Below, in pieces: positions 747-21,721 of a stretch of 64,000 nt of DNA. The DNA is taken from contig SOJX01000023.1 in assembly GCA_004376375.1 (NCBI GenBank), positions 36,013 to 100,012 of the forward strand, given 5' to 3'. The notes under the pieces are model-generated. The model had not been told where the DNA came from. It saw only the letters and a list, made by a program, of their open reading frames with translations, and searched no databases. Position 1 is the stretch's first letter, and each line of letters begins with the position of its first letter. The position numbers and the translations under genes were made by a program. The DNA comes from Planctomycetota bacterium (GTDB lineage Bacteria; Planctomycetota; E44-bin39).

Positions 747-888
747 TTTGCCTCTTTGCTTTTAAAACACAAGCGGCTCATGCCGCTCTCAGTGTTTTTT
801 TGCTTACAGAATGTTAACCCATGGCTCGAGTTTTGTCAAGGTTTTTCTGCGCAGGATTGTTCCCTTTGTTCCTTATTCCCTTATTCCC

Positions 889-3066
889 TTATTTCCTTAT
901 TTCCTTGCACGAGCGGTAGATGAATCGAATTTCCTCAATCTTCCACGTGCCCGGTCCAGGGGGCAGATCGAGCCACAGGCTGTCCGCGATGCCGCGCTGA
1001 AAAACTGACTCGACCGGCTCTGAAAAGCGCCCGCTTCCCCCGGATTTATCAATGGAAACCAGGATATCTGAAAGCCTCATCCGCACGCCACGGACGCCCG
1101 GAACTTTCCCGATACCTCTCAGCCTGATACGCACGGGGAAACTCTCGTCAGGTTTCATGCGTAGGGGCAAGGCATGCCTTGCCCCTACAGACAATTCAAT
1201 CTCAACTTTCCACAAGCCGCAGAGCGGGACCGGCCGGTCCAGGAGCAAAGCCGTGCCGCCGCGGCCCGCGCGAAAAACGCCGGGGGAAACTATCTCGACA
1301 TCATGGCTCCGCGGTGAAAACTCTTCACCGGAAACGGTAACGGTTTCGTCGGCGCCGGCATACGCCTTCGCGGCCTCCGGGGTAACGTCTTCAAGCGTCA
1401 TCATGTCCGGATCGTACGCAATAAGGTGTGCGCCGTTCCCGAAGCGCGCGCAATCGTTTTGAAAATCTCCCGGCACGTGTGCGGAACCGGGAAAAAACGT
1501 CCATACATTTGCAGACATGGGAAAACCCGCGTGCGTAACCAGCATCGTCCTGAACCCGACCGCGAACGCCATCGCGCCGTCGACGTGCGGCGGGATATAG
1601 AGAAAATAGTAGCTGCCCGCGGCCGGCCCGGACTCCTTTACCAGCTTCCGCGCTTCACTCTCCAGCGATTTGCAGTGCATGCCCGCTTTCGTCCAGGGCG
1701 TAGTATTCAACTGGAGCATAACGCTCCACGCCAGCACAAGAAACAGTACGGCTGCTTTTCCGGGCGCACCCCGCCTTGCGAGTGCGGCCAGCGCCAGTGC
1801 AAGAATAATGCTGACCCCGAGCGTCGGCATATAGACGTACCTGGCGCAGCTCTGATAGTCGAGGTCCCTCAAGAGATGGAACACGGGCAGGAAGCTGAAC
1901 AGTGTTGCCGCGCCTGCAAAAACCATCAACCGCCAGCGGCGTCTGCGAAGGCAGAGAATTATTCCGAAACCGATAATCCCCGCGCAGATCGCCGAAAGCA
2001 ATATCGCAATAACGGGAATGCTTTCGCCGTACATCGCACGGTTTACCGGCGCCAGCCATGCGCCGAAAATATACCTCGGGTCGGCAAGCGCCCTTTTCAG
2101 CATCGTTATATGTCTTCCGGCGCTCGGGGGAATTGTCCTGTACGCGACAAGTCCCCCCAGGACACAGCATCTGATAATAAAAATGGTAATCACCGTAATC
2201 GAGCCGGCAAACCCAAGCGCCAGCCGCCGCCTGAAAACCTTTTTATTCAACGCCGCGCAAGCGCGGCCGCTAACATCACATGCCGGCAGGAGGATTACCA
2301 GCAGCAGTATGAGCGGCAGGGCCGCAAACCCGTTCTCTTTCGTCATCGGTGCCGTGCACAAAAAGGCCGCGCTGAGGACACACCGCCACCAGCCGCCGTG
2401 CCGCAGATAATTCAGACCGAAAATGAGCGCCAGCAGCGTAAACATCACGGTCATCTGATCGTGTATGCAGGAAGGCCACGCCACGGTCCCGACCGACGCG
2501 GGGTAAAGCAGGAAAAGCAGCCCGGCCAGCGCGGCCTCGATATTCAGGCGGAAAGCTCTCTTCATAAACAGGAATAGAAGCATGGCGCAGAGCGCATGAA
2601 CGACCAGGCTCGTCAGGTGGAATATCACCGGCGTAAAACCGAAAAGGCTGACCATGCAGTACCACTCGAGCCACGCGACGGGACGCCAGTACCCGACCAG
2701 AACCTGCTGCGAAAAAAAATACCCGACGCCCCGGGCACGGTGAACCGCCACGAAATTCTGCACATAGTCGTCGCAGAGGAAGCCGATTCCCAGCGTGCGG
2801 GAAAAAAGCAGAAGCGTTATCACGAAAAATACGGCGCCGACGACGGGAGCGCTAAGTCGGCGCGTCTCGCCCGGCAGCCGTCGTGACTCTTCCGGCATGC
2901 CGCTGCAAAGCGACAGGGCGATTCCAATCACAGCGACAGCAAGGCCCGGATAGTAATTAATCACATATTTCAGAAACCCCGGCAGAGCGGGAAGCTCGTT
3001 CCGGAAGAAACAGGAGACCGAGACGATAACAAACCCGAGAGCCGTGAGCGCGCACCCGGCATACAT
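889..3066 (-). CDS. polytopic membrane protein, GT-C-fold glycosyltransferase-like (YfhO/PMT-like), with a C-terminal extracytoplasmic domain
   Basis: At least 10 predicted TM helices, then a roughly 250-aa soluble C-terminal domain. The track ORF extends to 3603 but overlaps lspA, so the start is taken at the in-frame ATG at 3066 (residue 180 of the track ORF). The stop lies inside a CCTTATT tandem array. Two palindromic repeat copies sit in frame at 2246-2274 and about 1150-1185. Confidence 0.55.
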   Translation of the reverse strand: MYAGCALTALGFVIVSVSCFFRNELPALPGFLKYVINYYPGLAVAVIGIALSLCSGMPEESRRLPGETRRLSAPVVGAVFFVITLLLFSRTLGIGFLCDDYVQNFVAVHRARGVGYFFSQQVLVGYWRPVAWLEWYCMVSLFGFTPVIFHLTSLVVHALCAMLLFLFMKRAFRLNIEAALAGLLFLLYPASVGTVAWPSCIHDQMTVMFTLLALIFGLNYLRHGGWWRCVLSAAFLCTAPMTKENGFAALPLILLLVILLPACDVSGRACAALNKKVFRRRLALGFAGSITVITIFIIRCCVLGGLVAYRTIPPSAGRHITMLKRALADPRYIFGAWLAPVNRAMYGESIPVIAILLSAICAGIIGFGIILCLRRRRWRLMVFAGAATLFSFLPVFHLLRDLDYQSCARYVYMPTLGVSIILALALAALARRGAPGKAAVLFLVLAWSVMLQLNTTPWTKAGMHCKSLESEARKLVKESGPAAGSYYFLYIPPHVDGAMAFAVGFRTMLVTHAGFPMSANVWTFFPGSAHVPGDFQNDCARFGNGAHLIAYDPDMMTLEDVTPEAAKAYAGADETVTVSGEEFSPRSHDVEIVSPGVFRAGRGGTALLLDRPVPLCGLWKVEIELSVGARHALPLRMKPDESFPVRIRLRGIGKVPGVRGVRMRLSDILVSIDKSGGSGRFSEPVESVFQRGIADSLWLDLPPGPGTWKIEEIRFIYRSCKEIRK
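2246..2274. repeat. REP-like element copy located in frame inside the GT-C-like membrane protein gene
   Basis: TTCAACGCCGCGCAAGCGCGGCCGCTAAC on the plus strand encodes VSGRACAAL in the minus-strand CDS. Confidence 0.7.
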
Positions 3067-3134
3067 GACGGCGGGCCGACGAAAGACCTGGGGCAGTCCG
3101 GAATTTTCTTTTGCGTTATCGCTCAAGGTTGACT

Positions 3135-3851
3135 TCAGGATTCCTTCGGGGTCTCGGTTTCCACTTTGCGGGTAAGGAATTGCTTCGCCAGAATAAGCAC
3201 CACTCCGGCGACGATGAAGACGTCCGCCGGGTTGAAGGTCGGCCAGTGCGCGCCCGCCGGCGTACCGCGGACTTTTATCAGCCAATCGGCAAGGCCGGTC
3301 CAGAACTCGACTGAGAAATCGAGAAAGTCGCGGACCGCGTGGTGGAACATCCTGTCCCAGAGGTTCGCCACCGCGCCCGCCCCGATAAGAGAAAGCCCGA
3401 TCTGGTACACGCGCTCGCCGCCCGAAAGCCGGCTCAGAATCCAGATTATCACGCCGACGGCGACAACCGTGAAAACAATCAGGAAAGCCACGTTGGGGAG
3501 CATCCCGAACATCGCACCCGGGTTGAAAGAGAGCTGGACTGTAAAAAACTTTCTGATAACAACACGCCTGGGCGGCCGGACATCTACAACCCGTACGGGC
3601 CACTCCCCGGGGACGAGGGCAACCGGGTGAAGCCCGCTCCCGTACTCTTTTTGAAACATTGATTCAAAGGCTTTGGTATTTTTAACGTAGCCTATCTTGA
3701 ACGGGTCCTCGACGTAGACTATTCGATGGGGAACCGACCGAAACGCCAGCCACTTGCTTCCGAGGTCGATGAAGATGCCCGTAACCACCAGCACGTAAAA
3801 CAACCAGTGCGCCCTGAAATGGCGTGCAAGTTTTATTCGCAACGCTTTCAC
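3135..3851 (-). CDS. lspA: lipoprotein signal peptidase II (LspA), insertion-bearing
   Basis: Conserved LspA motifs NPGAMFG, GAVANLWDR, VRDFLDF and HWPTFNPADVFI, including both catalytic Asp residues. A roughly 70-aa insertion lies between TM1 and the NPGA motif. GTG start overlaps the stop of the upstream paralog (GTGA). Confidence 0.8.
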   Translation of the reverse strand: MKALRIKLARHFRAHWLFYVLVVTGIFIDLGSKWLAFRSVPHRIVYVEDPFKIGYVKNTKAFESMFQKEYGSGLHPVALVPGEWPVRVVDVRPPRRVVIRKFFTVQLSFNPGAMFGMLPNVAFLIVFTVVAVGVIIWILSRLSGGERVYQIGLSLIGAGAVANLWDRMFHHAVRDFLDFSVEFWTGLADWLIKVRGTPAGAHWPTFNPADVFIVAGVVLILAKQFLTRKVETETPKES

Positions 3852-4915
3852 TCTGAAGCCTCCGGCGCCTCTGGTGTCTCCGGTGCCCCTGGTGTCTCCG
3901 GCGGCTCAGGCGGCTTCGGCTTGAGAATACGGGGAAACGGCTCAGGCCCGTCCGGTATTCCCGGCCCATCCGCCTCGCGAGCGGAAGGCGGCGAAAAATC
4001 ACCGTCAGACACTTCAGGACCGTCCCATGTCTGTATTATCTGTTCCCCTGCATCTCCGGCAGCGCCTGTGCCGGATTCCGGAACAGGAGATGTTCCATCC
4101 AACACGGGCTGCGGAACAGCACCACCGGCTTCCCCTTCCGCCGCCATGTGCCCTTCACCGCTTATGACCTGCTTGATAAAGACGGTGAACACCCCGACGC
4201 AGATAAAAATATCGGCCACGTTGAAGGTGGGCCAGTGGCTCTGCCCGATCCATTCCACGCTTTCGAGCCAATTCGCAAGGCCCGGCCAGAACCCTGCGTG
4301 AAAATCCAGGAAGTCGCGCACGGCGTGGAAGTTCAGCCTGTCCCACAGGTTCCCGATCGCGCCGGCGACGATAAGCCCGAGGCTTATATGCATGGCATAC
4401 TGGGTGGGCATTAGGAACTGATGCACGATCCCGAGCATTATGGCAACCGCGACCGATGTGAACAGGATTAGAAACGCGGCCTTTGTCGGGAAAATCCCGA
4501 ACATCGCACCCGGGTTGAACGAACAGCGGACGTTCAGGAAGCCGGGAATCACCGTCCGCATGACATTCTTCTCGTCAACTCCGTCGGGGATACCTGGAAA
4601 ACGGTTTGGTTCATTGCCCCGGGCAGGCACTACGTATGTTTTGCCATCTTCTTTCTTAAGCACATATTCGCGTTGCGGCGGGTCTATAATGCTGAAAACC
4701 AGCTTCTTCGTGCCTATATCGGCGACAATTCCAAAAACAATCACGAAGTAGAAAATCCAGTGAACACGTACGGAACGGGCCATGCGAACCGCAAGCGGAA
4801 GGGATTCTTCCCATTCGGCAGCGCCGTCAACCGTTGAAGGTGGCTCGGATGTGACATCTTCGTGAACAACCGAGTCCGGAGCCGCATTATCTCTCAGTTC
4901 CGGGTTCTCATCCAT
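3848..4915 (-). CDS. lspA: lipoprotein signal peptidase II paralog with acidic N-terminal extension and Pro/Glu-rich C-terminal tail
   Basis: Same motif set as the downstream paralog (NPGAMFG, GNLWDR, VRDFLDF, HWPTFNVADIFI). Extra roughly 45 aa at the N-terminus and a roughly 100-aa low-complexity tail (PEPPETPGAPETPEAPE). Confidence 0.75.
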   Translation of the reverse strand: MDENPELRDNAAPDSVVHEDVTSEPPSTVDGAAEWEESLPLAVRMARSVRVHWIFYFVIVFGIVADIGTKKLVFSIIDPPQREYVLKKEDGKTYVVPARGNEPNRFPGIPDGVDEKNVMRTVIPGFLNVRCSFNPGAMFGIFPTKAAFLILFTSVAVAIMLGIVHQFLMPTQYAMHISLGLIVAGAIGNLWDRLNFHAVRDFLDFHAGFWPGLANWLESVEWIGQSHWPTFNVADIFICVGVFTVFIKQVISGEGHMAAEGEAGGAVPQPVLDGTSPVPESGTGAAGDAGEQIIQTWDGPEVSDGDFSPPSAREADGPGIPDGPEPFPRILKPKPPEPPETPGAPETPEAPEASE

Positions 4916-5034
4916 CTAGTATCTTTTACGCAAATAAGGGGTTCGGGTTTCAAAATATATATATGGTGTTCAGATTATAGCCCGAATTTGCCGATAGCCA
5001 AACAGGATTTGAAGTTTTTTAAGCGTACCGGTGT

Positions 5035-6763: not shown

Positions 6764-7147
6764 GTGGGGAAAAGTTTTGAAGATCTTGAAGTATGGAAAC
6801 TGGCAAGGAAATTACGGGTGGACATCTATGACATTACGGAGAGCTTTCCATCACGCGAAAAGTATTCTCTTGTGAGTCAAATGCGACGGGCTGTACTCTC
6901 TGTTCCGGGCAATATAGCGGAAGGATACGGCAGATATCACTATAAGGAAAACATTCAGATGTGCAGGATTGCACGAGGCTCTTTGAACGAGTTGATTGAT
7001 TATTTATTCGCATCTGTGGATACAAAATACATTACTCAGGCGGTTTTCGAAACTCTTTACGCACAGGCAAGGGAAGTGGAAAAGGTTCTGAACGGATATA
7101 TAAAGTATTTGCAGAAACAGGCCGGCAAGGAAAAAGAGAAAGAATAA
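6764..7147 (+). CDS. four-helix-bundle protein (TIGR02436, 23S rRNA intervening-sequence protein family)
   Basis: MGKSFEDLEVWKLARKL...FPSREKYSLVSQMRRAVLSVPGNIAEG is characteristic of the family. Inserted between mlaF and mlaD and flanked by inverted AACAAGG/CCTTGTT tandem arms (6725-6760 and 7150-7200). Confidence 0.8.
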   Translation: MGKSFEDLEVWKLARKLRVDIYDITESFPSREKYSLVSQMRRAVLSVPGNIAEGYGRYHYKENIQMCRIARGSLNELIDYLFASVDTKYITQAVFETLYAQAREVEKVLNGYIKYLQKQAGKEKEKE

Positions 7148-9145: not shown

Positions 9146-10189
9146 TCAACTTGTTTCCTTATCCCCTTTTTCGACCGGCGGTTTTTCTTCTTCTTCCGAT
9201 TCGGATTCTTCTTCTACTTTTTCGGGGTCAATACGAAACTCATATAATGCTTTCCTTGCCGCCCGCCTTACACTGCTGTTACTATCTTCAAAATATGCCT
9301 GCTTCAGAGGTTCAATAGCCTTTTTATCACCAGTTGCGCTCAGGCAGTGTGCAGCTTCCCTGCGTACGCCTCCTGCCGGATCGTTCAGTAAAGCATAAAT
9401 TAGAGTCTTCATGTATTTCCTGCGATTCTTCCGGGTATTCTCCCAGAGCATTTCTTCACGCTTTCCAGGGTCTTGTTCATTTTTAAACTCATTCAGCAAC
9501 CTTTCAACTTCATCTTCATATCTTTTCTTCCGGGCTATATCCGTAGCTTCGTCATCTTGTTTAATGTCCAAACCGAACCAGCCACTTAAAAAGTCGGCCA
9601 TTTCAACCAGGCTGAGACCGAGTTCTATTCCTATTCCCACGCTTGCATGGACCGTCAGGTCCAGAAACCTGTCACTGTCTTCTGACCTCCAGTAATCACC
9701 TACCGTTCCCCATAAATCAGTGCTTACATCCAATCCGAGTATACCGCAATTACGCACTACCCATTTTCCATCCCAATCGACAATTTCAACACCGCTGGAG
9801 AACGGAAGGCAACATATTATTACCGTACCCTCAATCACTTCACCTAAGCCATCAAAGCTTGGAGTGTTGGTCGTTGTTGGAAAAGCACTGCTCTTCTCAA
9901 GTGCAAGGGAAGGACCCACTATATTAATAACAGGCAAGCCCAGGACAATAACTTTCTCGTCAACAAAATCGCGGCCAATAAACCCGATTCTTCGCTCCCA
10001 ACTCGCGCCGGCGGAGACATAAAACACGAGGCCCGATGTTCCAGCCGAAACGCCGTACCCATATCCGGCCTTTACCGTAAACATATCCACAAAATCCAGA
10101 CCGCGGTCTTTCAAATATGTCCCCAGCGACGCGCAGCCGGAAAAGGAAACAACAAACAGGAGGAGTAATGGAAAGATAAATCGTAACAT
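9146..10189 (-). CDS. lipoprotein with C-terminal HEAT (PBS-lyase-like) repeats and acidic tail
   Basis: Signal peptide with lipobox FSGC at the chosen ATG (10189). HEAT-like repeats (DPAGGVRREAAHCLSATGD, NSSVRRAARKAL). The track ORF extends upstream through a REP palindrome, so the shorter start is preferred. Confidence 0.6.
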   Translation of the reverse strand: MLRFIFPLLLLFVVSFSGCASLGTYLKDRGLDFVDMFTVKAGYGYGVSAGTSGLVFYVSAGASWERRIGFIGRDFVDEKVIVLGLPVINIVGPSLALEKSSAFPTTTNTPSFDGLGEVIEGTVIICCLPFSSGVEIVDWDGKWVVRNCGILGLDVSTDLWGTVGDYWRSEDSDRFLDLTVHASVGIGIELGLSLVEMADFLSGWFGLDIKQDDEATDIARKKRYEDEVERLLNEFKNEQDPGKREEMLWENTRKNRRKYMKTLIYALLNDPAGGVRREAAHCLSATGDKKAIEPLKQAYFEDSNSSVRRAARKALYEFRIDPEKVEEESESEEEEKPPVEKGDKETS

Positions 10190-10207
10190 TCTGCTACTCA
10201 TAAGGAT

Positions 10208-10271
10208 GTTAGCCGCGCCGCTTGCGGCGCGCGGTTTTCGGCACACCCGCCGCGCAAGCGCGGCGGCTAAC
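10208..10271. repeat. inverted pair of REP-like 29-bp elements upstream of the HEAT lipoprotein gene
   Basis: GTTAGCCGCGCCGCTTGCGGCGCGCGG ... CCGCCGCGCAAGCGCGGCGGCTAAC. Confidence 0.8.
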
Positions 10272-10441
10272 ACTGATTTCAATCAGATTACTTACATTCT
10301 ATGGCCGAATAACAATATTGCAATAAGAACATTCAACCGCCTGTCTTCCGAACCTCTTAACTTCTGAACTTCAACACTTCAGCACTTCAGCACTTCTTAA
10401 CCCCGGCACCCCAGCACCCCAGCACTCCTCCAAATTTCCCC

Positions 10442-10610: not shown

Positions 10611-12029
10611 ATGAACCAGGATTTACTGCGCCTTGTGGATGTTATTCACAGGGACAAGAACATCGAGAAAGACATCATCTTCAGCGGCATCGAGGCGTGC
10701 CTGCTCTCGGCCGCGCGCAAGAACCTGGGCACCACTGACGATGTCGAAGTAACGATCGACCATGAAAGCGGCGATATCGTTATAACATGTAACGGAACGC
10801 CGCTTGACCCGAAAATGCTGGGCCGAATATCCGCGCTAACCGGCAAGCAGGTCCTCATCCAAAAGATAAAGGAAGCGGAGTCTAACACCATTTTCGAGGA
10901 CTATTCCGTAAAGCTCGGACAGGTCGTTACCGCGCAGGTGCAGCGCTTCGAGGGGCCGAACGTCATTGTAAACCTCGGCAAGACCGAGGGCTTTCTGCCC
11001 CGCAGACAGCAGATTCCGGGCGAAACGTACCAGCCGGGCGAGCGCCTCAAGCTCTTCATCACCGAGGTCAAGAAATCGGGCCAGAGGGTGAAGATAATGC
11101 TTTCGAGGGCGCACGCCGATTTCATACGCGCCCTCTTCGAGATCGAGGTGCCCGAGATAGCCGAGGCGATTATCGAGATCAAATCACTCGCCCGCGAGCC
11201 CGGCTACCGCACAAAGATAGCCGTACGCTCCCTCGACCCGAAGGTTGACTGCGTCGGCGCGTGCGTCGGCGTCCGCGGCGCGAGGATTCGCAGCATCGTC
11301 GACGAGCTCAACGGAGAGAAAATCGACATCATCAAGTGGAGCGATTCGCCGGAAGTGCTCATCATGAACTCTCTCAAGCCGGCGGAGATCGATGCCATTA
11401 CGCTCGACTACGAAAACGGCCGGGCACAGGTTATCGTCGACGAAAGCCAGCTCTCGCTCGCCATCGGGCGGCGCGGGCAGAACGTGCGGCTGGCCGCGAA
11501 ACTTTCCGGCTGGGAGCTCGACATCGTCAGCCCCGATAAAATCGCGGCCGGAGAAGCAATCGACATCGGCCTCATCGACGAGGAAGACCTTAAGAAAAAA
11601 CCGAACAAAAAACTCACGGCCGAGCAGGTCTTCGGCCCGGATAACGACGAGACGCAGGAAACGGACGCGGCGAAAGAGAAAGCTGAAGATACCGAGGCCG
11701 CAACCGAAGACGCGCCCGAAACTGAGGAAGATACCAAGGCGGAAACCGAAGACGCGCCCGGGACTGAGGAAGATACCAAGGCGGAAACCGAAGACGCGCC
11801 CGGGACTGAAGATGATTCAGAACCGGATTCGGCAGAGGATTCCGGTGAGTCGGAAGTAAAATCCGAGACGGACGACCTCGCGCAGTGCGCGGAAAAAGCC
11901 GTTTCGGACGCTGAAGAAGCGGTTCCCGACGACGAAGCGGATGAGACACCGCAGTCGGAAGAACCTGAAAAGGAAACAATTGACGCTCAACCAGAGAGCG
12001 TAACGGACGACGGCGATGAGACGACCTGA
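10611..12029 (+). CDS. nusA: transcription termination/antitermination factor NusA
   Basis: Full-length NusA with S1 and KH regions and an acidic C-terminal tail encoded by a tandem 48-bp DNA repeat (11700-11815). Confidence 0.95.
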   Translation: MNQDLLRLVDVIHRDKNIEKDIIFSGIEACLLSAARKNLGTTDDVEVTIDHESGDIVITCNGTPLDPKMLGRISALTGKQVLIQKIKEAESNTIFEDYSVKLGQVVTAQVQRFEGPNVIVNLGKTEGFLPRRQQIPGETYQPGERLKLFITEVKKSGQRVKIMLSRAHADFIRALFEIEVPEIAEAIIEIKSLAREPGYRTKIAVRSLDPKVDCVGACVGVRGARIRSIVDELNGEKIDIIKWSDSPEVLIMNSLKPAEIDAITLDYENGRAQVIVDESQLSLAIGRRGQNVRLAAKLSGWELDIVSPDKIAAGEAIDIGLIDEEDLKKKPNKKLTAEQVFGPDNDETQETDAAKEKAEDTEAATEDAPETEEDTKAETEDAPGTEEDTKAETEDAPGTEDDSEPDSAEDSGESEVKSETDDLAQCAEKAVSDAEEAVPDDEADETPQSEEPEKETIDAQPESVTDDGDETT

Positions 12030-12123
12030 TCATCTCATTGCCGATACATAAGCACCGGCGCCCCTATTAAAGTGGAGGCGCGCGGCGCTTCCACCGAATG
12101 AATGCTGAAAGGGGCTCCGGAGA

Positions 12124-15708: not shown

Positions 15709-16500
15709 ATGGGCAAACCTTCCTCAAATAACGAAGCAGGTTCCAACGCATCAGCCGCTCCGATTGTGGAGATATTTTCTTCAATCCAGGGCGAAGGCCT
15801 GCGGGCGGGTGAGCGCCACTGCTTCGTCCGGCTCGCCGGATGCAATCGCGCCTGCGCATACTGCGACACTCCCCTGGGTCGTTCGGTTCCGGAAAACGCG
15901 CGGATCGAGCAATACGCAACCAGGCGGGATTTCGAGGAATCCAAAAACCCTCTCACCGCGCAGAACGTACGGAACGCCTGCATGAACCTCGATCTTCCGC
16001 CCGGCTTCCACCATGCCGCAGCCGTCACGGGAGGCGAGCCTCTCCTCCACCCGGATTTCCTCGGCGAACTGCTGCCGCTCCTCAAACAGAACGGCTGGAC
16101 CACGCTGCTCGAAACCAACGGCACGCTGCCCGATGAATTGGCAAGTATTATCGATTCTGTTGACGTCGTATCGATGGATATGAAACTCGAAAGCGCGACG
16201 GAAGAGCCGGCCGGTTTCGATCTCCACGAAAGCTTTCTTGAAATCGCGGCGCAGACGGACGTTTATGTAAAACTGGTTGTAGTAGAAAAAACAACAGAGG
16301 CAGAGCTTGCCGCGGCCGGTAAAATTGTTGCCGGGGTGAATAAGGCGATACCGCTGATTATCCAGCCGTGCACGAAGCCGGACGGCCGCTCTTTCGCCGT
16401 TTCACAGGACAGCCTTGAAAACTTTGCAGCAATATGCCGAAAATACCTCGGCCGGGTTGAAATAATTCCCCAACTCCACCGCCTGCACCGGATTCCGTAA
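15709..16500 (+). CDS. queE: 7-carboxy-7-deazaguanine synthase QueE (radical SAM)
   Basis: CNRACAYCDT cluster motif and overall QueE-like layout. Confidence 0.8.
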   Translation: MGKPSSNNEAGSNASAAPIVEIFSSIQGEGLRAGERHCFVRLAGCNRACAYCDTPLGRSVPENARIEQYATRRDFEESKNPLTAQNVRNACMNLDLPPGFHHAAAVTGGEPLLHPDFLGELLPLLKQNGWTTLLETNGTLPDELASIIDSVDVVSMDMKLESATEEPAGFDLHESFLEIAAQTDVYVKLVVVEKTTEAELAAAGKIVAGVNKAIPLIIQPCTKPDGRSFAVSQDSLENFAAICRKYLGRVEIIPQLHRLHRIP

Positions 16501-16560
16501 GTTTCATAACGCCATGTGCCGTTTACAGTTATCCACAGCATCGGCAGCCGCGTTTTTGTA

Positions 16561-16589
16561 TTGACACTACATACCCCCTTTGCTAGAAT
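16561..16589 (+). promoter_or_regulatory. sigma-70-like promoter upstream of the acyl-CoA dehydrogenase and decarboxylase operon (TTGACA-17-TAGAAT)
   Basis: Consensus -35 and good -10 with 17-nt spacing. Followed by the AGTCGTTAGTG hairpin in the 5-prime UTR. Confidence 0.5.
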
Positions 16590-16591
16590 CC

Positions 16592-16665
16592 GCGCCTGTT
16601 CTCAGTAGTTAGTCGTTAGTGATTAATAATATAGACTAACGACTAACCACTAACCACTAACAACC
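16592..16665. repeat. hairpin of AGTTAGTCGTTAGTG / CACTAACGACTAACC arrays in the 5-prime UTR of the acyl-CoA dehydrogenase gene
   Basis: Inverted arms around an AT-rich loop (TTAATAATATAG). Confidence 0.75.
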
Positions 16666-16676
16666 AGGAGACTGGC

Positions 16677-17876
16677 ATGGTCGATTTTGCGCTTTCCGAA
16701 GAAATGCAGATGGTTCGGGAGACTGCCCGCGATTTTGCGTGGAGCCGAATCTATCCGACCATCGAGGAAGACGAGGAAGCTCACCGCTTCAGGCCCGAAA
16801 TCGTACGCGAGATGGGCGAGCTCGGGTTTTTCGGCACACTTATCGACGAGCAGTACGGGGGCAACCCCGAGCTTGGAATGATGGCCGCCGTCCTCATGTC
16901 CGAGGAAACTGCCCGAGTCTCGGCTTCATGGGGTCTGCCGTTCAACATGCAGATGATCGGCTCTGCGCTCACGATTCAGAACTTCGGCACCGACGCTCAG
17001 AAGGAAAAATACATTCCGCAACTCGTCTCCGGTGAAAAACTGGGCTATTTCGCAATCACCGAACCGAACTCCGGAAGCGACGTTGCTTCGATGGGAACGA
17101 CCGCCTTGAAGAAAGGCGACCGCTACGTACTCAACGGCCAGAAGATGTGGATATCGAACGCACAGGTCGGCGACTACGGCATCACCTTCGCCAAGACCGA
17201 TCCGAACGCGGACAAACCGCACCGCGGCCTGTCGGCCTTCATCACCGAGACAAAGGATGCAAAGGGCGTCGAGGCCAAGGCTATCGAGAGCAAGTTCGGT
17301 CTCTTCTGCGCGCCGACCGGAGAGTTCGCGTTCAGCGATTACGAGGTGCCGGAAGAGAACCTTCTCGGCAAGGAAGGCGACGGCTTCAAGATATGCATGA
17401 CGCTCCTGGGCAATACCCGCCTTTCATGTGCCGCGCGTGCCGTCGGGGTTTCCCGTGCATGTCTGGAAGACTCGACGAAATACGCAAAAGAGCGCACCCA
17501 GTTCGGCAAGCCGATCGCAAGCTTCCAGATGATCCAGGAACAGCTCGCCGAGATGTGGCTCGAGCACGCCGCGGCCGAGCTCCTCGTATGGAAGGCCGCA
17601 TGGAACTATGACCGCATCAAGCGCGAAGGCCTGAAAGAGCGCAACACGATTGCCGTTTCGACGGCGAAGCTTTATTCGGCAACCGCAGCCATGCGCTCGG
17701 CCACGCTTGCCATGAAGATTTTCGGCTCTTACGGCTTCTCGACGGAATACCCCGCGGCGCGGTACCTGCGCGATGCCGCGAGTTACGCCGTGGTCGAAGG
17801 CACGAGCAACATCCAGACCACGATTATCGCTCGCTGGGTAATTGACGAAATGCAAATAACTGGTCCCAAGGCCTAA
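16677..17876 (+). CDS. acyl-CoA dehydrogenase
   Basis: Full ACAD-family protein. Preceded by a consensus-like promoter and a hairpin in the 5-prime UTR. Confidence 0.9.
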   Translation: MVDFALSEEMQMVRETARDFAWSRIYPTIEEDEEAHRFRPEIVREMGELGFFGTLIDEQYGGNPELGMMAAVLMSEETARVSASWGLPFNMQMIGSALTIQNFGTDAQKEKYIPQLVSGEKLGYFAITEPNSGSDVASMGTTALKKGDRYVLNGQKMWISNAQVGDYGITFAKTDPNADKPHRGLSAFITETKDAKGVEAKAIESKFGLFCAPTGEFAFSDYEVPEENLLGKEGDGFKICMTLLGNTRLSCAARAVGVSRACLEDSTKYAKERTQFGKPIASFQMIQEQLAEMWLEHAAAELLVWKAAWNYDRIKREGLKERNTIAVSTAKLYSATAAMRSATLAMKIFGSYGFSTEYPAARYLRDAASYAVVEGTSNIQTTIIARWVIDEMQITGPKA

Positions 17877-17881
17877 AAAAT

Positions 17882-17909
17882 GTAGGGGCACAGCGCGCTG
17901 TGCCCCTAC
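17882..17909 (+). terminator. hairpin TGTAGGGGCACAGCGCGCTGTGCCCCTACA between acyl-CoA dehydrogenase and carboxyltransferase genes
   Basis: Perfect 12-bp stem. Member of the TAGGGGC...GCCCCTA palindrome family. Attenuator or processing-site function is speculative. Confidence 0.4.
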
Positions 17910-17936
17910 AACATATACACCAGCCGGAGATTGAAA

Positions 17937-19496
17937 ATGTCACTCGAAGAAATGAACGAAAAAATCAAGGCCGTCGAGGACCGCCGCGCAGTTATCCACG
18001 CGGGCGGCGGCCCGAAAGCCGTCGAGAAGGTCCACAAGAGCGGAAAGATGACCGCACGCGAGCGGCTCGACTACCTGTACGACGACGGCACCTTCATGGA
18101 GTACGACGTCTTCGCAAAGCACATCGGCCGCGACTACGGCCTCGACAAGAAAGACGTGCCGGCCGACGGCGTCGTCACGGGCTACGGTAAGATCAACGGC
18201 AGGCCCGCATTCTGTTACAGCGAAGACTTCACCGTAATCGCCGGAACATTCGGCGAAATGCACGGACGCAAAATCGGCAAGACCGTCGACCTCGCCCGCG
18301 AAATGGGCGTACCGCTCATCGGCATCAACGACTCCGGCGGCGCCCGTGTCACCGAGGAGATGGGCGCGCTGTCGATGTACGGCCGGCTCTTCTACAGGCA
18401 CGTGCGCACCTCCGGCGTTGTCCCTCAGATCGCGCTGATTATGGGTCCGGTCGCAGGCGGGCAGGCATACTCGCCGGCGCTCATGGACTTCATCTTCATG
18501 GTCCGCAATACAAGCTACATGTTCATTGCCGGACCCCCGCTGGTGAAAGCCGTCGTCTTCGAGGACGTAACCGTCGACGACCTCGGCGGGCCCGACGTCC
18601 ACGCCCGGGTATCGGGCGTAAGCGACCTTACGACCGAAAACGACAAAGACTGCCTCGATAGAACCAAAAGATTGCTTTCGTTTCTACCACTGAACTCAAA
18701 GGAAGACGCCCCTTACATCGAGCCTGAGGACGACCCGGGACGAATCGATGAAGAACTCCGTAAAATCGTCCCGACCGACCCGAACGTGCTATACGACATG
18801 CACGAAGTCATCAACCGCATCGTGGACGGCAGTGATTTCTTCGAGATCAAGCCCGAGTACGCTGCAAACCTTATTATCGGCTTCGCCCGCATGAGCGGAC
18901 ACGTGACCGGCATCGTCGCAAACAACCCGAAAGTCATGGCCGGCTGCCTCGACTTCAAGGCGTCCGACAAGGGCTCCCGTTTTATCCGTTTCTGCAACGC
19001 GTTCAACATACCGCTTCTGAACCTTCAGGACGTGCCCGCATACCTCATCGGCTCCAAGTCGGAGCGCGACGGAATCATCCGCCACGGCGCGAAGATGCTT
19101 TACGCCTACGCCGAGTGCACCGTGCCGCTGGTTACCTGCGTTCTCCGCAAAGCATATGCCGGCGGATACCTTGCGATGTGCTCAAAAGACCTGGGCGCGG
19201 ATTTCCTTTTCGAGCTGCCGACCGGTGAAATATGCCTGATGGGCCCTCCGGGCGCGGTAAATATTCTTTTTAGAAAAGAAATCGCGGCGGCCGACGACCC
19301 GGAGGCCGAGCGCGCAAAGCGCCAGAAAGAGTTCTACGACAAGTTCGTCAACCCGCAGTACTCGGCGGCATTGCAGCATGTTGACGATATCATAGATCCT
19401 GCTATAATGCGGCCGACGTTTATAAAGGCGTTCGACATAATCAGGAACAAGGACGACCGGCTGCCGGACAAAAAATTCGGAATAACGCCCGTTTAG
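17937..19496 (+). CDS. acyl-CoA carboxyltransferase subunit (methylmalonyl-CoA decarboxylase alpha / propionyl-CoA carboxylase beta type)
   Basis: Carboxyltransferase domain pair (GGARVTEEMGALSMYG, AGGAYLAMCSKDLGAD). ATG at 17937 is preferred over the TTG at 17931. Confidence 0.9.
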   Translation: MSLEEMNEKIKAVEDRRAVIHAGGGPKAVEKVHKSGKMTARERLDYLYDDGTFMEYDVFAKHIGRDYGLDKKDVPADGVVTGYGKINGRPAFCYSEDFTVIAGTFGEMHGRKIGKTVDLAREMGVPLIGINDSGGARVTEEMGALSMYGRLFYRHVRTSGVVPQIALIMGPVAGGQAYSPALMDFIFMVRNTSYMFIAGPPLVKAVVFEDVTVDDLGGPDVHARVSGVSDLTTENDKDCLDRTKRLLSFLPLNSKEDAPYIEPEDDPGRIDEELRKIVPTDPNVLYDMHEVINRIVDGSDFFEIKPEYAANLIIGFARMSGHVTGIVANNPKVMAGCLDFKASDKGSRFIRFCNAFNIPLLNLQDVPAYLIGSKSERDGIIRHGAKMLYAYAECTVPLVTCVLRKAYAGGYLAMCSKDLGADFLFELPTGEICLMGPPGAVNILFRKEIAAADDPEAERAKRQKEFYDKFVNPQYSAALQHVDDIIDPAIMRPTFIKAFDIIRNKDDRLPDKKFGITPV

Positions 19497-19510
19497 TGGT
19501 TAGTCGTTTT

Positions 19511-19539
19511 GTTAGCGGCGCCGCTTGCGCGGCGTTGAA
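19511..19539. repeat. REP-like element GTTAGCGGCGCCGCTTGCGCGGCGTTGAA
   Basis: Consensus copy with an internal CGCCGC-TTGC-GCGGCG hairpin. Lies between the carboxyltransferase and gamma-subunit genes. Confidence 0.8.
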
Positions 19540-19560
19540 TAATAAAATCGGATTAAATTC

Positions 19561-19872
19561 ATGTTTCTTGCTGAGACAATCAACATCGACTGGAATTTCG
19601 CAGCCAAGGTTTCCGGTTACGGGTTCGCGGGCGTATTTATCGCCATGAGCGTTCTTGCGCTGGTCATCTGGCTGGTCGGGAAATGCCACAAGGCCTTTGA
19701 TGAAAAACTGAAGGGCAAGGGAGTTCTTGTCGGACTCATTGTATTGTTTGTGCTCGCCGCGCTCATCGCGGCGCATATCGTGACCGAAATGGGGAAGGAA
19801 TCGACCTCATCCCGGTTGGAACAGTCGGAAGTATCCGCAGCCGAACGTCAGGCCGCAATGGAGGACAGTTAG
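19561..19872 (+). CDS. small membrane subunit, OadG-like (gamma) of Na+-translocating decarboxylase
   Basis: 103 aa with an N-proximal TM helix. Positioned between the carboxyltransferase and biotin carrier genes. Confidence 0.5.
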   Translation: MFLAETINIDWNFAAKVSGYGFAGVFIAMSVLALVIWLVGKCHKAFDEKLKGKGVLVGLIVLFVLAALIAAHIVTEMGKESTSSRLEQSEVSAAERQAAMEDS

Positions 19873-19873
19873 C

Positions 19874-20092
19874 ATGGCAACTCAGGTCGTTGCACCTATG
19901 GTGTGTCAGGTAAAGAAGGTTCACGTTGAAGTGGGGGCCCAGGTTCAGGAAAACGATACGCTCGTCACAATCGAGGCGATGAAGGTGGAGATGCCGATCC
20001 CGGCCCCGGTCGCGGGCACGGTCGTGGCGATCCACTGCGCCGAGGGCGACACGGTAGAGGCCGAGACCGTACTTATCGATCTCGACGAGTAA
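19874..20092 (+). CDS. biotin carboxyl carrier (biotinyl domain) subunit
   Basis: Biotinyl-lysine motif EAMKVEM, 72 aa. Confidence 0.85.
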   Translation: MATQVVAPMVCQVKKVHVEVGAQVQENDTLVTIEAMKVEMPIPAPVAGTVVAIHCAEGDTVEAETVLIDLDE

Positions 20093-20185
20093 CCCCGGAA
20101 CTACTGTACTGCATATATCGCGGCGCCGTGGCGGCCGTCACGGCGCCGCGATATAAAAGCAGCCGACCGCTCAAGGAACTTTCGA

Positions 20186-21721
20186 ATGCCCGAGCTTGGC
20201 AAGAAACGCAGACTGCCGCAAACCTGGGTGATTCTTACAAGCATCCTTCTTTTTCTTGCGACGTTGTTCTTCTGCATGCGCGCAGGCGGCGGCGCGCCGG
20301 CCGGCAAACAAACACCCCTCCGCACACGTATCGGCGGTACAATCACCGCGGATGAGACACGCAAAATCCTGAAGAAAACCCGTTTCCACCCGACGCGCGA
20401 TGCCGTAACGCTGGACGAAATCATCGCGTTGGTGGAAGAGACCGGCCTGAAAGTCGAAATTGAAAAGGGGATAAAAACCGACCGCGATCTGAGAATCGGG
20501 AGCAAAGCGCGCAATCTCGAATCAATCCTGAAAGCCGCGGGACACATCGGCCATTTTCGCATGCGGGTTAAAGCCGGCGGTATCGTCATCGAATCGCCCA
20601 GTATCTTCCGCACCGTCGGCCTTCTGCGCCTCACTTTCGGCAACATCATCATGCTGATTATCGGCATGGTTTTCATATACCTCGCGGTTAAAAAAGACAT
20701 GGAGCCTTACGAGCTCCTGCCCATCGGTTTCGGTATTATTCTCGGCAATCTCCCGCTAACCAGACTTATGAGTTTCAGCGGCGCGGAAATCCAGCAGTCC
20801 GGAATTCTTGGCGTGTTTTTCCACTACGGGCTTTACTTTCATAACATTCTGCCGCCGCTGATTTTTCTCGGCCTCGGAGCGATGACCGATTTCGGACCGC
20901 TTATCGCAAACCCGAAAACGCTGATCTTCGGCGCCGCCGCGCAGCTCGGTATTTTTATCGCATTCTGGGGCGCGCTCTTTCTCGGATTCAACATCCACGA
21001 GGCCGCGGCCATAGGAATCATCGGGGGCGCCGACGGTCCCACCACGATCTATACGTCCGCAAAGGTGGCACCCGAAATCCTTGGGATAACGGCAGTCTGC
21101 GCATACACGTACATGGCGCTCGTCGCGATAATCCAGCCGCCCATAATGAAGCTGCTCACGACGAAGGAAGAACGAAAAATCAGAATGAAAATGCTCCGCC
21201 AGGTCTCCAAAGCGGAAAAAATTCTTTTCCCGATTGTCGGCACGTTCGTGATTCTCCTTCTCGTGCCGCTTGCCGCGCCGCTCCTGGGGCTCTTCATGCT
21301 CGGAAACCTGTTCCGCGAGTCCGGCGTCGTCCCCCGCCTCTCCGACGGCGCGCAGAACGAGCTCATGAACATCGTCACCATCTTCCTCATGCTCTGCATC
21401 GGCGCGTGGATGGGCGCGGAAAATATTCTCAAGGTGCGCACGCTCGCCGTGCTCGGGCTCGGCATCATCGCCTTCGCCTTCGGGACCGCGGGCGGTATCC
21501 TGCTCGCCAAGTTCATGAACCTGTTCCTCAAGGAAAAAATAAACCCGCTCGTCGGCTCGGCGGGAGTGTCGGCCGTCCCGATGGCTGCGAGAATCTCCCA
21601 GATAGTCGGCCAGAAGGAAGACCCGCAGAACTTCCTGCTCATGCACGCGATGGGCGCCAACGTCGCCGGCGTTATCGGCTCCGCAGTCGCAGCAGGACTT
21701 TTCCTCTCGCTGTTGACATAG
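20186..21721 (+). CDS. Na+-translocating decarboxylase beta subunit (OadB/MmdB family) with N-terminal extension
   Basis: OadB core runs from [14 protein letters not shown] onward, with [10 protein letters not shown]. An additional roughly 130-aa N-terminal region with one TM helix is not typical. The start is uncertain. Confidence 0.8.

Follow-up and report, generated by a model that had tools for sequence, protein, structure and literature searches.

The 64,000-nucleotide stretch of contig SOJX01000023.1 (assembly GCA_004376375.1) analyzed here, hereafter the window, comes from an uncultured member of the Planctomycetota and encodes two adjacent paralogs of LspA, the signal peptidase II. 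These proteins, B355 (paralog B, the upstream copy; positions 3848 to 4915, minus strand, 355 amino acids [aa], ATG start) and A238 (paralog A, the downstream copy; positions 3135 to 3851, minus strand, 238 aa, GTG start), are probably two bona fide LspA isoenzymes whose substrate-facing caps have diverged since an old duplication in this one lineage. An old, co-conserved, and coupled pair with full active sites and real decorations fits two nonredundant isoenzymes. The locus represents a genuine, lineage-specific variant of a familiar enzyme rather than a system of a new kind, and its novelty is modest.

The genes for B and A are head-to-tail open reading frames (ORFs) in which the TGA stop codon of B and the GTG start codon of A share 4 bp (GTGA, positions 3848 to 3851). 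The junction (positions 3848 to 3863, minus strand) also includes a GGAGG sequence (positions 3859 to 3863) that is separated from the GTG codon by a 7-nucleotide (nt) spacer and sits inside the 3′ end of B. An earlier note on this DNA, made from the sequence alone, had described two translationally coupled paralogs of 238 and 355 aa; these lengths and the coordinates were right, and the coupling is supported. The arrangement recurs in the relatives: an A/B pair with the same 4-bp overlap is found in contigs L001 (assembly GCA_054868705.1, where the two proteins are 377 and 301 aa long), L002 (from a JGI metagenome), and L003 (from a Logan assembly), and the overlap is seen in contig L095 as well. 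No third lspA gene was detected by tblastn in the 64-kb window. This gene order fits cotranscription and translational coupling of A and B in a predicted operon that, in the window and in L002, would also include a large polytopic membrane protein.

Family membership and active sites

Both proteins match the Pfam family PF01252 (Peptidase_A8), A with an E value of 5.5e-32 (111.4 bits) and B with an E value of 9.4e-27 (94.4 bits; cutoff, 25). In comparisons with TIGR00077 (lspA), A scored 84.4 bits, above the cutoff of 73.95, and B scored 69.6 bits, slightly under it. The only sequence matches among solved structures were LspA proteins, namely, those of Pseudomonas aeruginosa (5DIR and 9EMZ) and Staphylococcus aureus (6RYO). 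The AlphaFold2 (AF2) models of A (mean predicted local distance difference test [pLDDT] score, 88.3; predicted TM-score, 0.85) and B (mean pLDDT, 77.5; core, >90) both contain four long helices and the strands of the β-cradle. At E values below 1e-7, Foldseek searches with either model returned no structures other than those of LspA, with target-normalized TM-scores of 0.75 to 0.80; the matches included 5dir for A (E value of 2e-9, TM-score of 0.79) and 6ryp and 5dir for B (0.75 to 0.80). Thus, A and B share with canonical LspA of family A8 (5DIR from P. aeruginosa and 6RYO/6RYP from S. aureus) the Pfam family, the fold of four transmembrane (TM) helices with a β-cradle, and the 14 conserved residues considered below.

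The structure of the S. aureus enzyme (SaLspA) revealed 14 conserved residues and a catalytic dyad of D118 and D136 (PMC6952399), which, in a HMMER alignment, correspond to D124 (in VVDF) and D143 (in FNLAD) of the P. aeruginosa enzyme (PaLspA). At these 14 positions, A, B, their orthologs, and PaLspA all have the same residues, DKNGGNDRVDFNAD; conservation of the columns was judged on alignments of 112 to 114 homologs. The residues in question are D29, K33, N110, G112, G159, N163, D166, R167, V173, D175, F206, N207, A209, and D210 in A and D66, K70, N134, G136, G185, N189, D192, R193, V199, D201, F231, N232, A234, and D235 in B. The catalytic Asp residues, all four in invariant columns and encoded on the minus strand, are D175 (VRDF, positions 3327 to 3329) and D210 (TFNPAD, positions 3222 to 3224) in A and D201 (VRDF, positions 4313 to 4315; equivalent to SaLspA D118 and PaLspA D124) and D235 (TFNVAD, positions 4211 to 4213; equivalent to SaLspA D136 and PaLspA D143) in B. 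The earlier note had placed the catalytic Asp residues in WDR and VRDF. The VRDF residue is indeed one of them, but the WDR residue (D166 in A and D192 in B), while conserved and among the 14, is outside the dyad, and its second member is the Asp of FNxAD. Careful alignment, at which one copy might have turned out to lack a catalytic residue, found 14 of 14 positions kept in both, so that neither copy looks like a pseudoenzyme. Both look catalytically competent, and each would be expected to cleave diacylglyceryl-modified prolipoproteins before the +1 Cys residue, as canonical LspA does.

Insertions in the periplasmic loops

Segment lengths were measured as residues between conserved columns and compared with those in 106 other homologs, a sample biased toward relatives. 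The segment from the Lys residue of the first TM helix (TM1) to the Asn residue of NxGA comprises 76 residues in A, 63 in B, and 26 in PaLspA (median among the other homologs, 31, with 14 to 19% of them having one as long), and the segment from the first catalytic Asp to FN comprises 31, 30, and 15 residues, respectively (14 to 15% of the others as long). Compared to canonical LspA, A has gained a net ∼50 aa and B a net ∼37 aa after TM1, and a second insertion of ∼15 aa, unremarked in the earlier note, lies between the catalytic Asp residues in both copies. The ∼70-aa insertion between TM1 and NPGA that had been claimed for both proteins is therefore real but was overestimated in size. The extracellular loop over the pocket is 4 to 5 residues shorter than in the canonical enzyme (20 residues in A and 21 in B versus 25 in PaLspA), near the lower limit of the lengths seen in the family.

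Alignment to the solved LspA proteins places the first insertion between TM1 and NxGA, and in both AF2 models it follows TM1 immediately and precedes the two canonical cradle strands. In A, this insertion (residues 40 to 94; positions 3570 to 3734, minus strand) is predicted to form two strands (residues 43 to 47 and 75 to 79) and helices (residues 50 to 53 and 59 to 70), with pLDDT values of 64 to 82. It is 49 to 51% identical to its counterparts in the L002 and L003 orthologs, and the proportion of nonsynonymous differences (pN) is lower than that of synonymous ones (pS). The insertion in B (residues 77 to 118; positions 4562 to 4687, minus strand) is predicted to form a β-hairpin and a short strand (strands at residues 82 to 89, 92 to 97, and 106 to 108; pLDDT, 82 to 88) and is 69% identical to that of the L002 ortholog, with a pN of 0.18 versus a pS of 0.85. 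The second insertion in A (residues 181 to 202; positions 3246 to 3311, minus strand) includes a predicted amphipathic helix with the pattern FWxGLAxWL (residues 185 to 195). Its equivalent in B is residues 207 to 227, and a longer inter-Asp loop ending in HWPTFNVAD is widespread among the homologs. The insertions of A and B are unlike each other in sequence and predicted structure, as expected of diverged substrate-facing parts.

Given that both termini of LspA are cytoplasmic and that the cradle and the loop are extracytoplasmic (PMC8689077), the insertions can be assigned to the periplasm and the terminal tails of B to the cytoplasm. Each paralog would be elaborated at two periplasmic places, the TM1-to-cradle loop and the inter-Asp loop, both of which are predicted to lie at the β-cradle and cap, over the substrate in solved structures. 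By sequence comparison, the TM1-cradle loop evidently serves as a hot spot for insertions across the LspA family. In loci L085 and L089, both copies of a tandem lspA pair carry insertions there (77 and 61 residues and 53 and 50 residues, respectively) with sequences unrelated to those of the A and B inserts. In the A-type ortholog P0004 from the more distant relative (L001, positions 11131 to 12036; 301 aa), the loop carries an unrelated insert too and is enlarged to 136 residues, which indicates that it keeps growing within the clade.

Termini of paralog B

Paralog B has 65 residues before the TM1 Asp residue, compared to 28 in A, 22 in PaLspA, and a median of 30 in the other homologs, and 120 residues after the second catalytic Asp, compared to 28 in A, 26 in PaLspA, and a median of 40 (maximum, 95) in the others. 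Relative to canonical LspA, these are additions of an acidic N terminus of ∼40 aa and of a disordered C-terminal tail of ∼100 aa with a conserved motif, both found in B but not in A. The N-terminal extension (residues 1 to 44; positions 4784 to 4915, minus strand), predicted to be cytoplasmic, has a net charge of −10 and runs into helices at residues 29 to 51 (pLDDT, 72 to 91). A similar acidic extension is present in the B ortholog P0006, and a comparison with L001 gave a pN of 0.45 versus a pS of 0.96. The translation start of B may instead be M45.

The predicted cytoplasmic C-terminal tail (residues 252 to 355; positions 3851 to 4162, minus strand) is rich in Pro (20%), Gly (15%), Glu (13%), and Ala, has a net charge of −17, and is predicted to be disordered (pLDDT, 40 to 65). 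The acidic N terminus of ∼45 aa and the Pro/Glu-rich tail of ∼100 aa that had been ascribed to the upstream copy thus agree with composition, charge, and pLDDT alike. Such a tail is common to all four B-type orthologs, which align at the motif D[GA]PEPFPR[IV]L, represented in B by PEPFPRIL (positions 3923 to 3946, minus strand). This motif shows a rate of nonsynonymous substitution (dN) of 0.089 versus a synonymous rate (dS) of 1.57 against L002 and occurs once in the six-frame translation of the window. Its simplest interpretation is that of a putative docking site for a cytoplasmic partner.

Acidic tails are also seen in two neighboring gene products. NusA (positions 10611 to 12029, plus strand) carries a repeat-rich acidic C-terminal tail of ∼130 aa made of TEDAPxTEEDTKAE units, and a HEAT-repeat protein (positions 9146 to 10282, minus strand) ends in an acidic run. 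Acidic low-complexity tails seem to be common in the source organism. The HEAT-repeat protein also has a lipobox-like sequence, VSFSGC, after a hydrophobic stretch and may itself be a substrate of LspA.

Origin, distribution, and selection

A and B share 41% identity across 228 aa. In a neighbor-joining tree of 114 LspA sequences (162 columns, with bootstrap), the A-type and B-type clades each received 100% support and were sisters to each other at 83%. Since each of these sister clades has its own orthologs, the duplication was specific to this lineage and older than its split from the organism represented by L001. The possibility of a recent duplication, raised in the earlier note, thus gave way to an old one. 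The pair-bearing contigs share the mlaEFD-nusA-infB synteny wherever it is visible. The clade is rare: an exhaustive search of a representative set with the LspA profile produced 16,433 matches, 4 of them with E values below 1e-30. Among species-representative genomes and metagenome contigs, there were no relatives closer than ∼35%, and the clade was seen solely in the organism of the window and in L001 to L003. Of the 14 other loci titled Planctomycetota or its subgroups, none had a second adjacent lspA gene, and a literature search on planctomycete LspA returned nothing specific.

Selection was estimated by the Nei-Gojobori method against L002; the resulting dN/dS ratios of ∼0.27 for A and ∼0.22 for B are rough, as dS is near saturation. 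With pN lower than pS in both insertions and in the B tail, the insertions and tails are, by this measure, under purifying selection.

Comparison with other tandem lspA loci

The earlier note had presented two lspA copies as a rarity, which overstated the case. Myxococcus xanthus carries four paralogs of LspA, all of them active peptidases, two of which (lspA1 and lspA2) form a tandem within an operon that includes lgt (Xiao and Wall 2014, summarized in PMC8689077); lspA3 and lspA4 are located in the cluster for myxovirescin, and the globomycin producer has two lspA copies (PMC8689077). Adjacent same-strand lspA pairs were also found in 10 of 90 unrelated loci, 6 of them from Polyangium or other Polyangiaceae (L004 to L008 and L013) and 4 metagenomic (L084, L085, L089, and L093).

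The window pair resembles the lspA1-lspA2 type of M. xanthus in having two adjacent, seemingly active paralogs on the same strand. However, loci of that type include lgt, which comes after the two lspA genes at 9 of the 10 other tandem-pair loci (and lies within the flanking DNA at 64 of 94 loci examined), whereas the window pair has no lgt next to it or within 64 kb. A tblastn search with an Lgt sequence returned nothing below an E value of 0.08 in the window, and no lgt was found in L001 or L002. In the lspA-lspA-lgt loci, the genes are 50 to 100 bp apart, in contrast to the 4-bp overlap of the window pair, and the third gene is lgt instead of one for a 745-aa membrane protein. The copies in other tandem pairs have C-terminal tails of 31 to 65 aa, while the tail of B is long and disordered. 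Given that A and B form sister clades, the duplication in the window was independent of the M. xanthus type. In antibiotic producers, the additional lspA copies (M. xanthus lspA3/lspA4 and that of the globomycin producer) resemble the window pair in being extra in the genome, but they sit in biosynthetic clusters and not among housekeeping genes. Thus, the features particular to this locus are the independent origin of the pair, its coupling by overlap, the absence of lgt, and the long, disordered, motif-bearing tail of B.

Two observations from other sequences can be added. In the Polyangium pairs, the N terminus of the second copy is extended by ∼45 acidic aa-rich positions. A 358-aa ORF, P0126 (L097, positions 244 to 1320; ENA accession ERZ27256924, contig k141_4307866), contains two complete LspA domains, each with D..K, NxGA, NxxDR, VIDF, and FNVAD, joined by a linker rich in Pro, Glu, Ser, and Ala. 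It comes directly after the end of ileS in a single short contig (1.7 kb), and its tail, APETPASESGAGTGAA, is like that of B355 in composition.

Functional interpretation

If A and B are separate isoenzymes, the substrates or the membrane microenvironment would most likely be partitioned between them through subfunctionalization. Several points weigh against this view. The structure predicted for the insertion in A is of moderate confidence (pLDDT, 64 to 82), only ∼6 sequences inform the insertions, and the long N terminus of B is supported by one full-length ortholog. Part of the B tail may be a habit of the proteome, since NusA and the HEAT-repeat protein are acidic tailed as well. A third, canonical lspA gene may exist elsewhere in the genome, in which case the pair may be accessory.

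The pair could also be a redundant housekeeping lspA, as proposed for M. xanthus lspA1/lspA2, with the decorations reflecting neutral loop growth. Tandem pairs and long TM1-cradle loops do recur in unrelated lineages, this loop accepts unrelated inserts (L085, L089, and P0004), and disordered acidic tails are common in the window. Nevertheless, the retention of A and B, of the insertions particular to each, and of the tail motif, with pN lower than pS, dates from before the window lineage separated from that of L001, and such long retention disfavors pure redundancy and neutral junk, leaving this explanation doubtful without making it far-fetched. A joint action of A and B, in a heteromer or through regulation of one by the other, with coupling matching their amounts, is similarly unlikely. 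Four contigs conserve the 4-bp overlap even though the paralogs are 41% identical, and P0126 fuses two LspA domains, which the topology would allow, as LspA has both its N and C termini inside. On the other hand, each paralog has a complete active site, no pairing interface is described in PMC6952399 or PMC8689077, P0126 comes from a single 1.7-kb contig, and start/stop overlaps are common in ordinary operons. An obligate A-plus-B enzyme would be a heteromeric signal peptidase II, the first of its kind. Such an enzyme, with the enlarged cap and the PEPFPRIL tail coupling cleavage to another step and P0126 as a Rosetta-stone hint, appears highly improbable; candidates for the coupled step would be glycosylation or sorting by the co-operonic GT-C-like protein or an action of a cytoplasmic partner.

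The proposal of the earlier note that one copy may confer resistance to LspA inhibitors of the globomycin type, widened here to immunity and to myxovirescin-like inhibitors, fared poorly. Producers of globomycin and myxovirescin do carry extra lspA copies (PMC8689077), which have been proposed to act in this way, and the loop over the binding pocket is short (20 to 21 residues versus ∼25). Yet this short loop is found in both copies and in about a quarter of the other homologs, and the conserved inhibitor-contacting residues are all unchanged in A and B. The neighbors are housekeeping genes (mlaEFD, nusA, and infB) in all syntenic contigs, and neither the window nor the 10 kb past its left end contains a biosynthetic hallmark or an ORF of the size of a nonribosomal peptide synthetase or polyketide synthase, the largest ORFs being 878 to 904 aa. 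A resistance role is, accordingly, very hard to favor. Finally, a frameshift or misassembly, either of which the earlier note had considered, or a decaying pseudogene can be regarded as practically excluded. The frames are continuous, with in-frame LspA motifs flanking each insertion; the orthologs have the same architecture; the B protein is identical in three assemblies (a JGI contig, NCBI assembly GCA_030588815.1, and a Logan assembly); and both genes, including the insertions (pN < pS), are under purifying selection. Nothing in favor of an artifact was found.

The two-isoenzyme interpretation would have consequences beyond this locus. If A and B split the lipoprotein pool, they would offer a natural system in which the contribution of the β-cradle and cap to substrate choice could be studied in an enzyme that is an antibiotic target. 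The tail motif would point to a partner in lipoprotein maturation in the Planctomycetota, whose envelope biogenesis is poorly known. At present, the locus mainly documents that LspA tolerates large inserts at two periplasmic loops and that tandem pairs arose repeatedly.

Downstream gene and genomic neighborhood

The gene downstream of A (positions 889 to 3126, minus strand) starts with TTG at position 3126, 9 nt past the A stop codon, and encodes a possibly GT-C-like polytopic membrane protein of 745 aa whose C-terminal part is soluble. A promoter-like site upstream of B (positions 4974 to 5001, minus strand; TTGGCT-16-TATAAT, with 10 of 12 consensus matches) and a terminator-like hairpin followed by a T-run after the membrane protein gene (positions 771 to 788, minus strand; consensus scan) are pattern matches only. 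No RNA family was recognized when the window was compared with Rfam. The product of the gene after the pair in L002 is 40% identical to the 745-aa protein, starting from residue 1, and both have a DD motif past the early TM helices (FLCDDY in the window and FLADDF in L002). In L001, this place is taken by ankyrin-repeat genes, so not every member of the clade has the membrane protein gene linked to the lspA genes.

The 745-aa protein had no Pfam match at E values up to 0.01 and no sequence match in the PDB, and its sole NCBIfam match was TIGR03663 at an E value of 0.025, far under the cutoff of that model. Its homologs are all distant (25 to 28% identity; E values of 1e-13 to 1e-6) and consist of tetratricopeptide repeat membrane proteins, one of them with a PMT_2 domain (PF13231). 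The description of this protein as GT-C-like is therefore best regarded as a plausible but weakly founded label: one distant homolog carries PMT_2, and the protein matches no GT-C profile.

The neighbors of the pair include mlaEFD, nusA, infB, genes for decarboxylase subunits, and a sigma-54 activator. The opposite strand faces the pair with mlaE, mlaF, a bAvd-like gene, and mlaD, followed by nusA and infB. The bAvd-like gene (positions 6764 to 7147, plus strand), located between mlaF and mlaD, encodes a 127-aa four-helix-bundle protein and coincides with a dip in GC content (0.47 versus ∼0.58). An identical gene in L095 matches 23S_rRNA_IVP/bAvd in Pfam. It looks inserted into the mla operon, given that the syntenic mlaEFD genes of L001 are without it.

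Further along, genes for an acyl coenzyme A (acyl-CoA) dehydrogenase, a carboxyltransferase, and the β-subunit of a Na+-translocating decarboxylase (positions 16677 to 21721, plus strand) suggest an acyl-CoA decarboxylase system that pumps sodium; a corresponding PYC_OADA/biotin subunit is encoded past the left end of the window (L095, positions 16016 to 17974). Downstream of the predicted lspA operon, positions 1 to 1000 have low GC content (0.46 to 0.53) and a strong AT skew and contain small ORFs only; in L095, gene calls over this region comprise three small proteins, one of which has a weak match to PccX.

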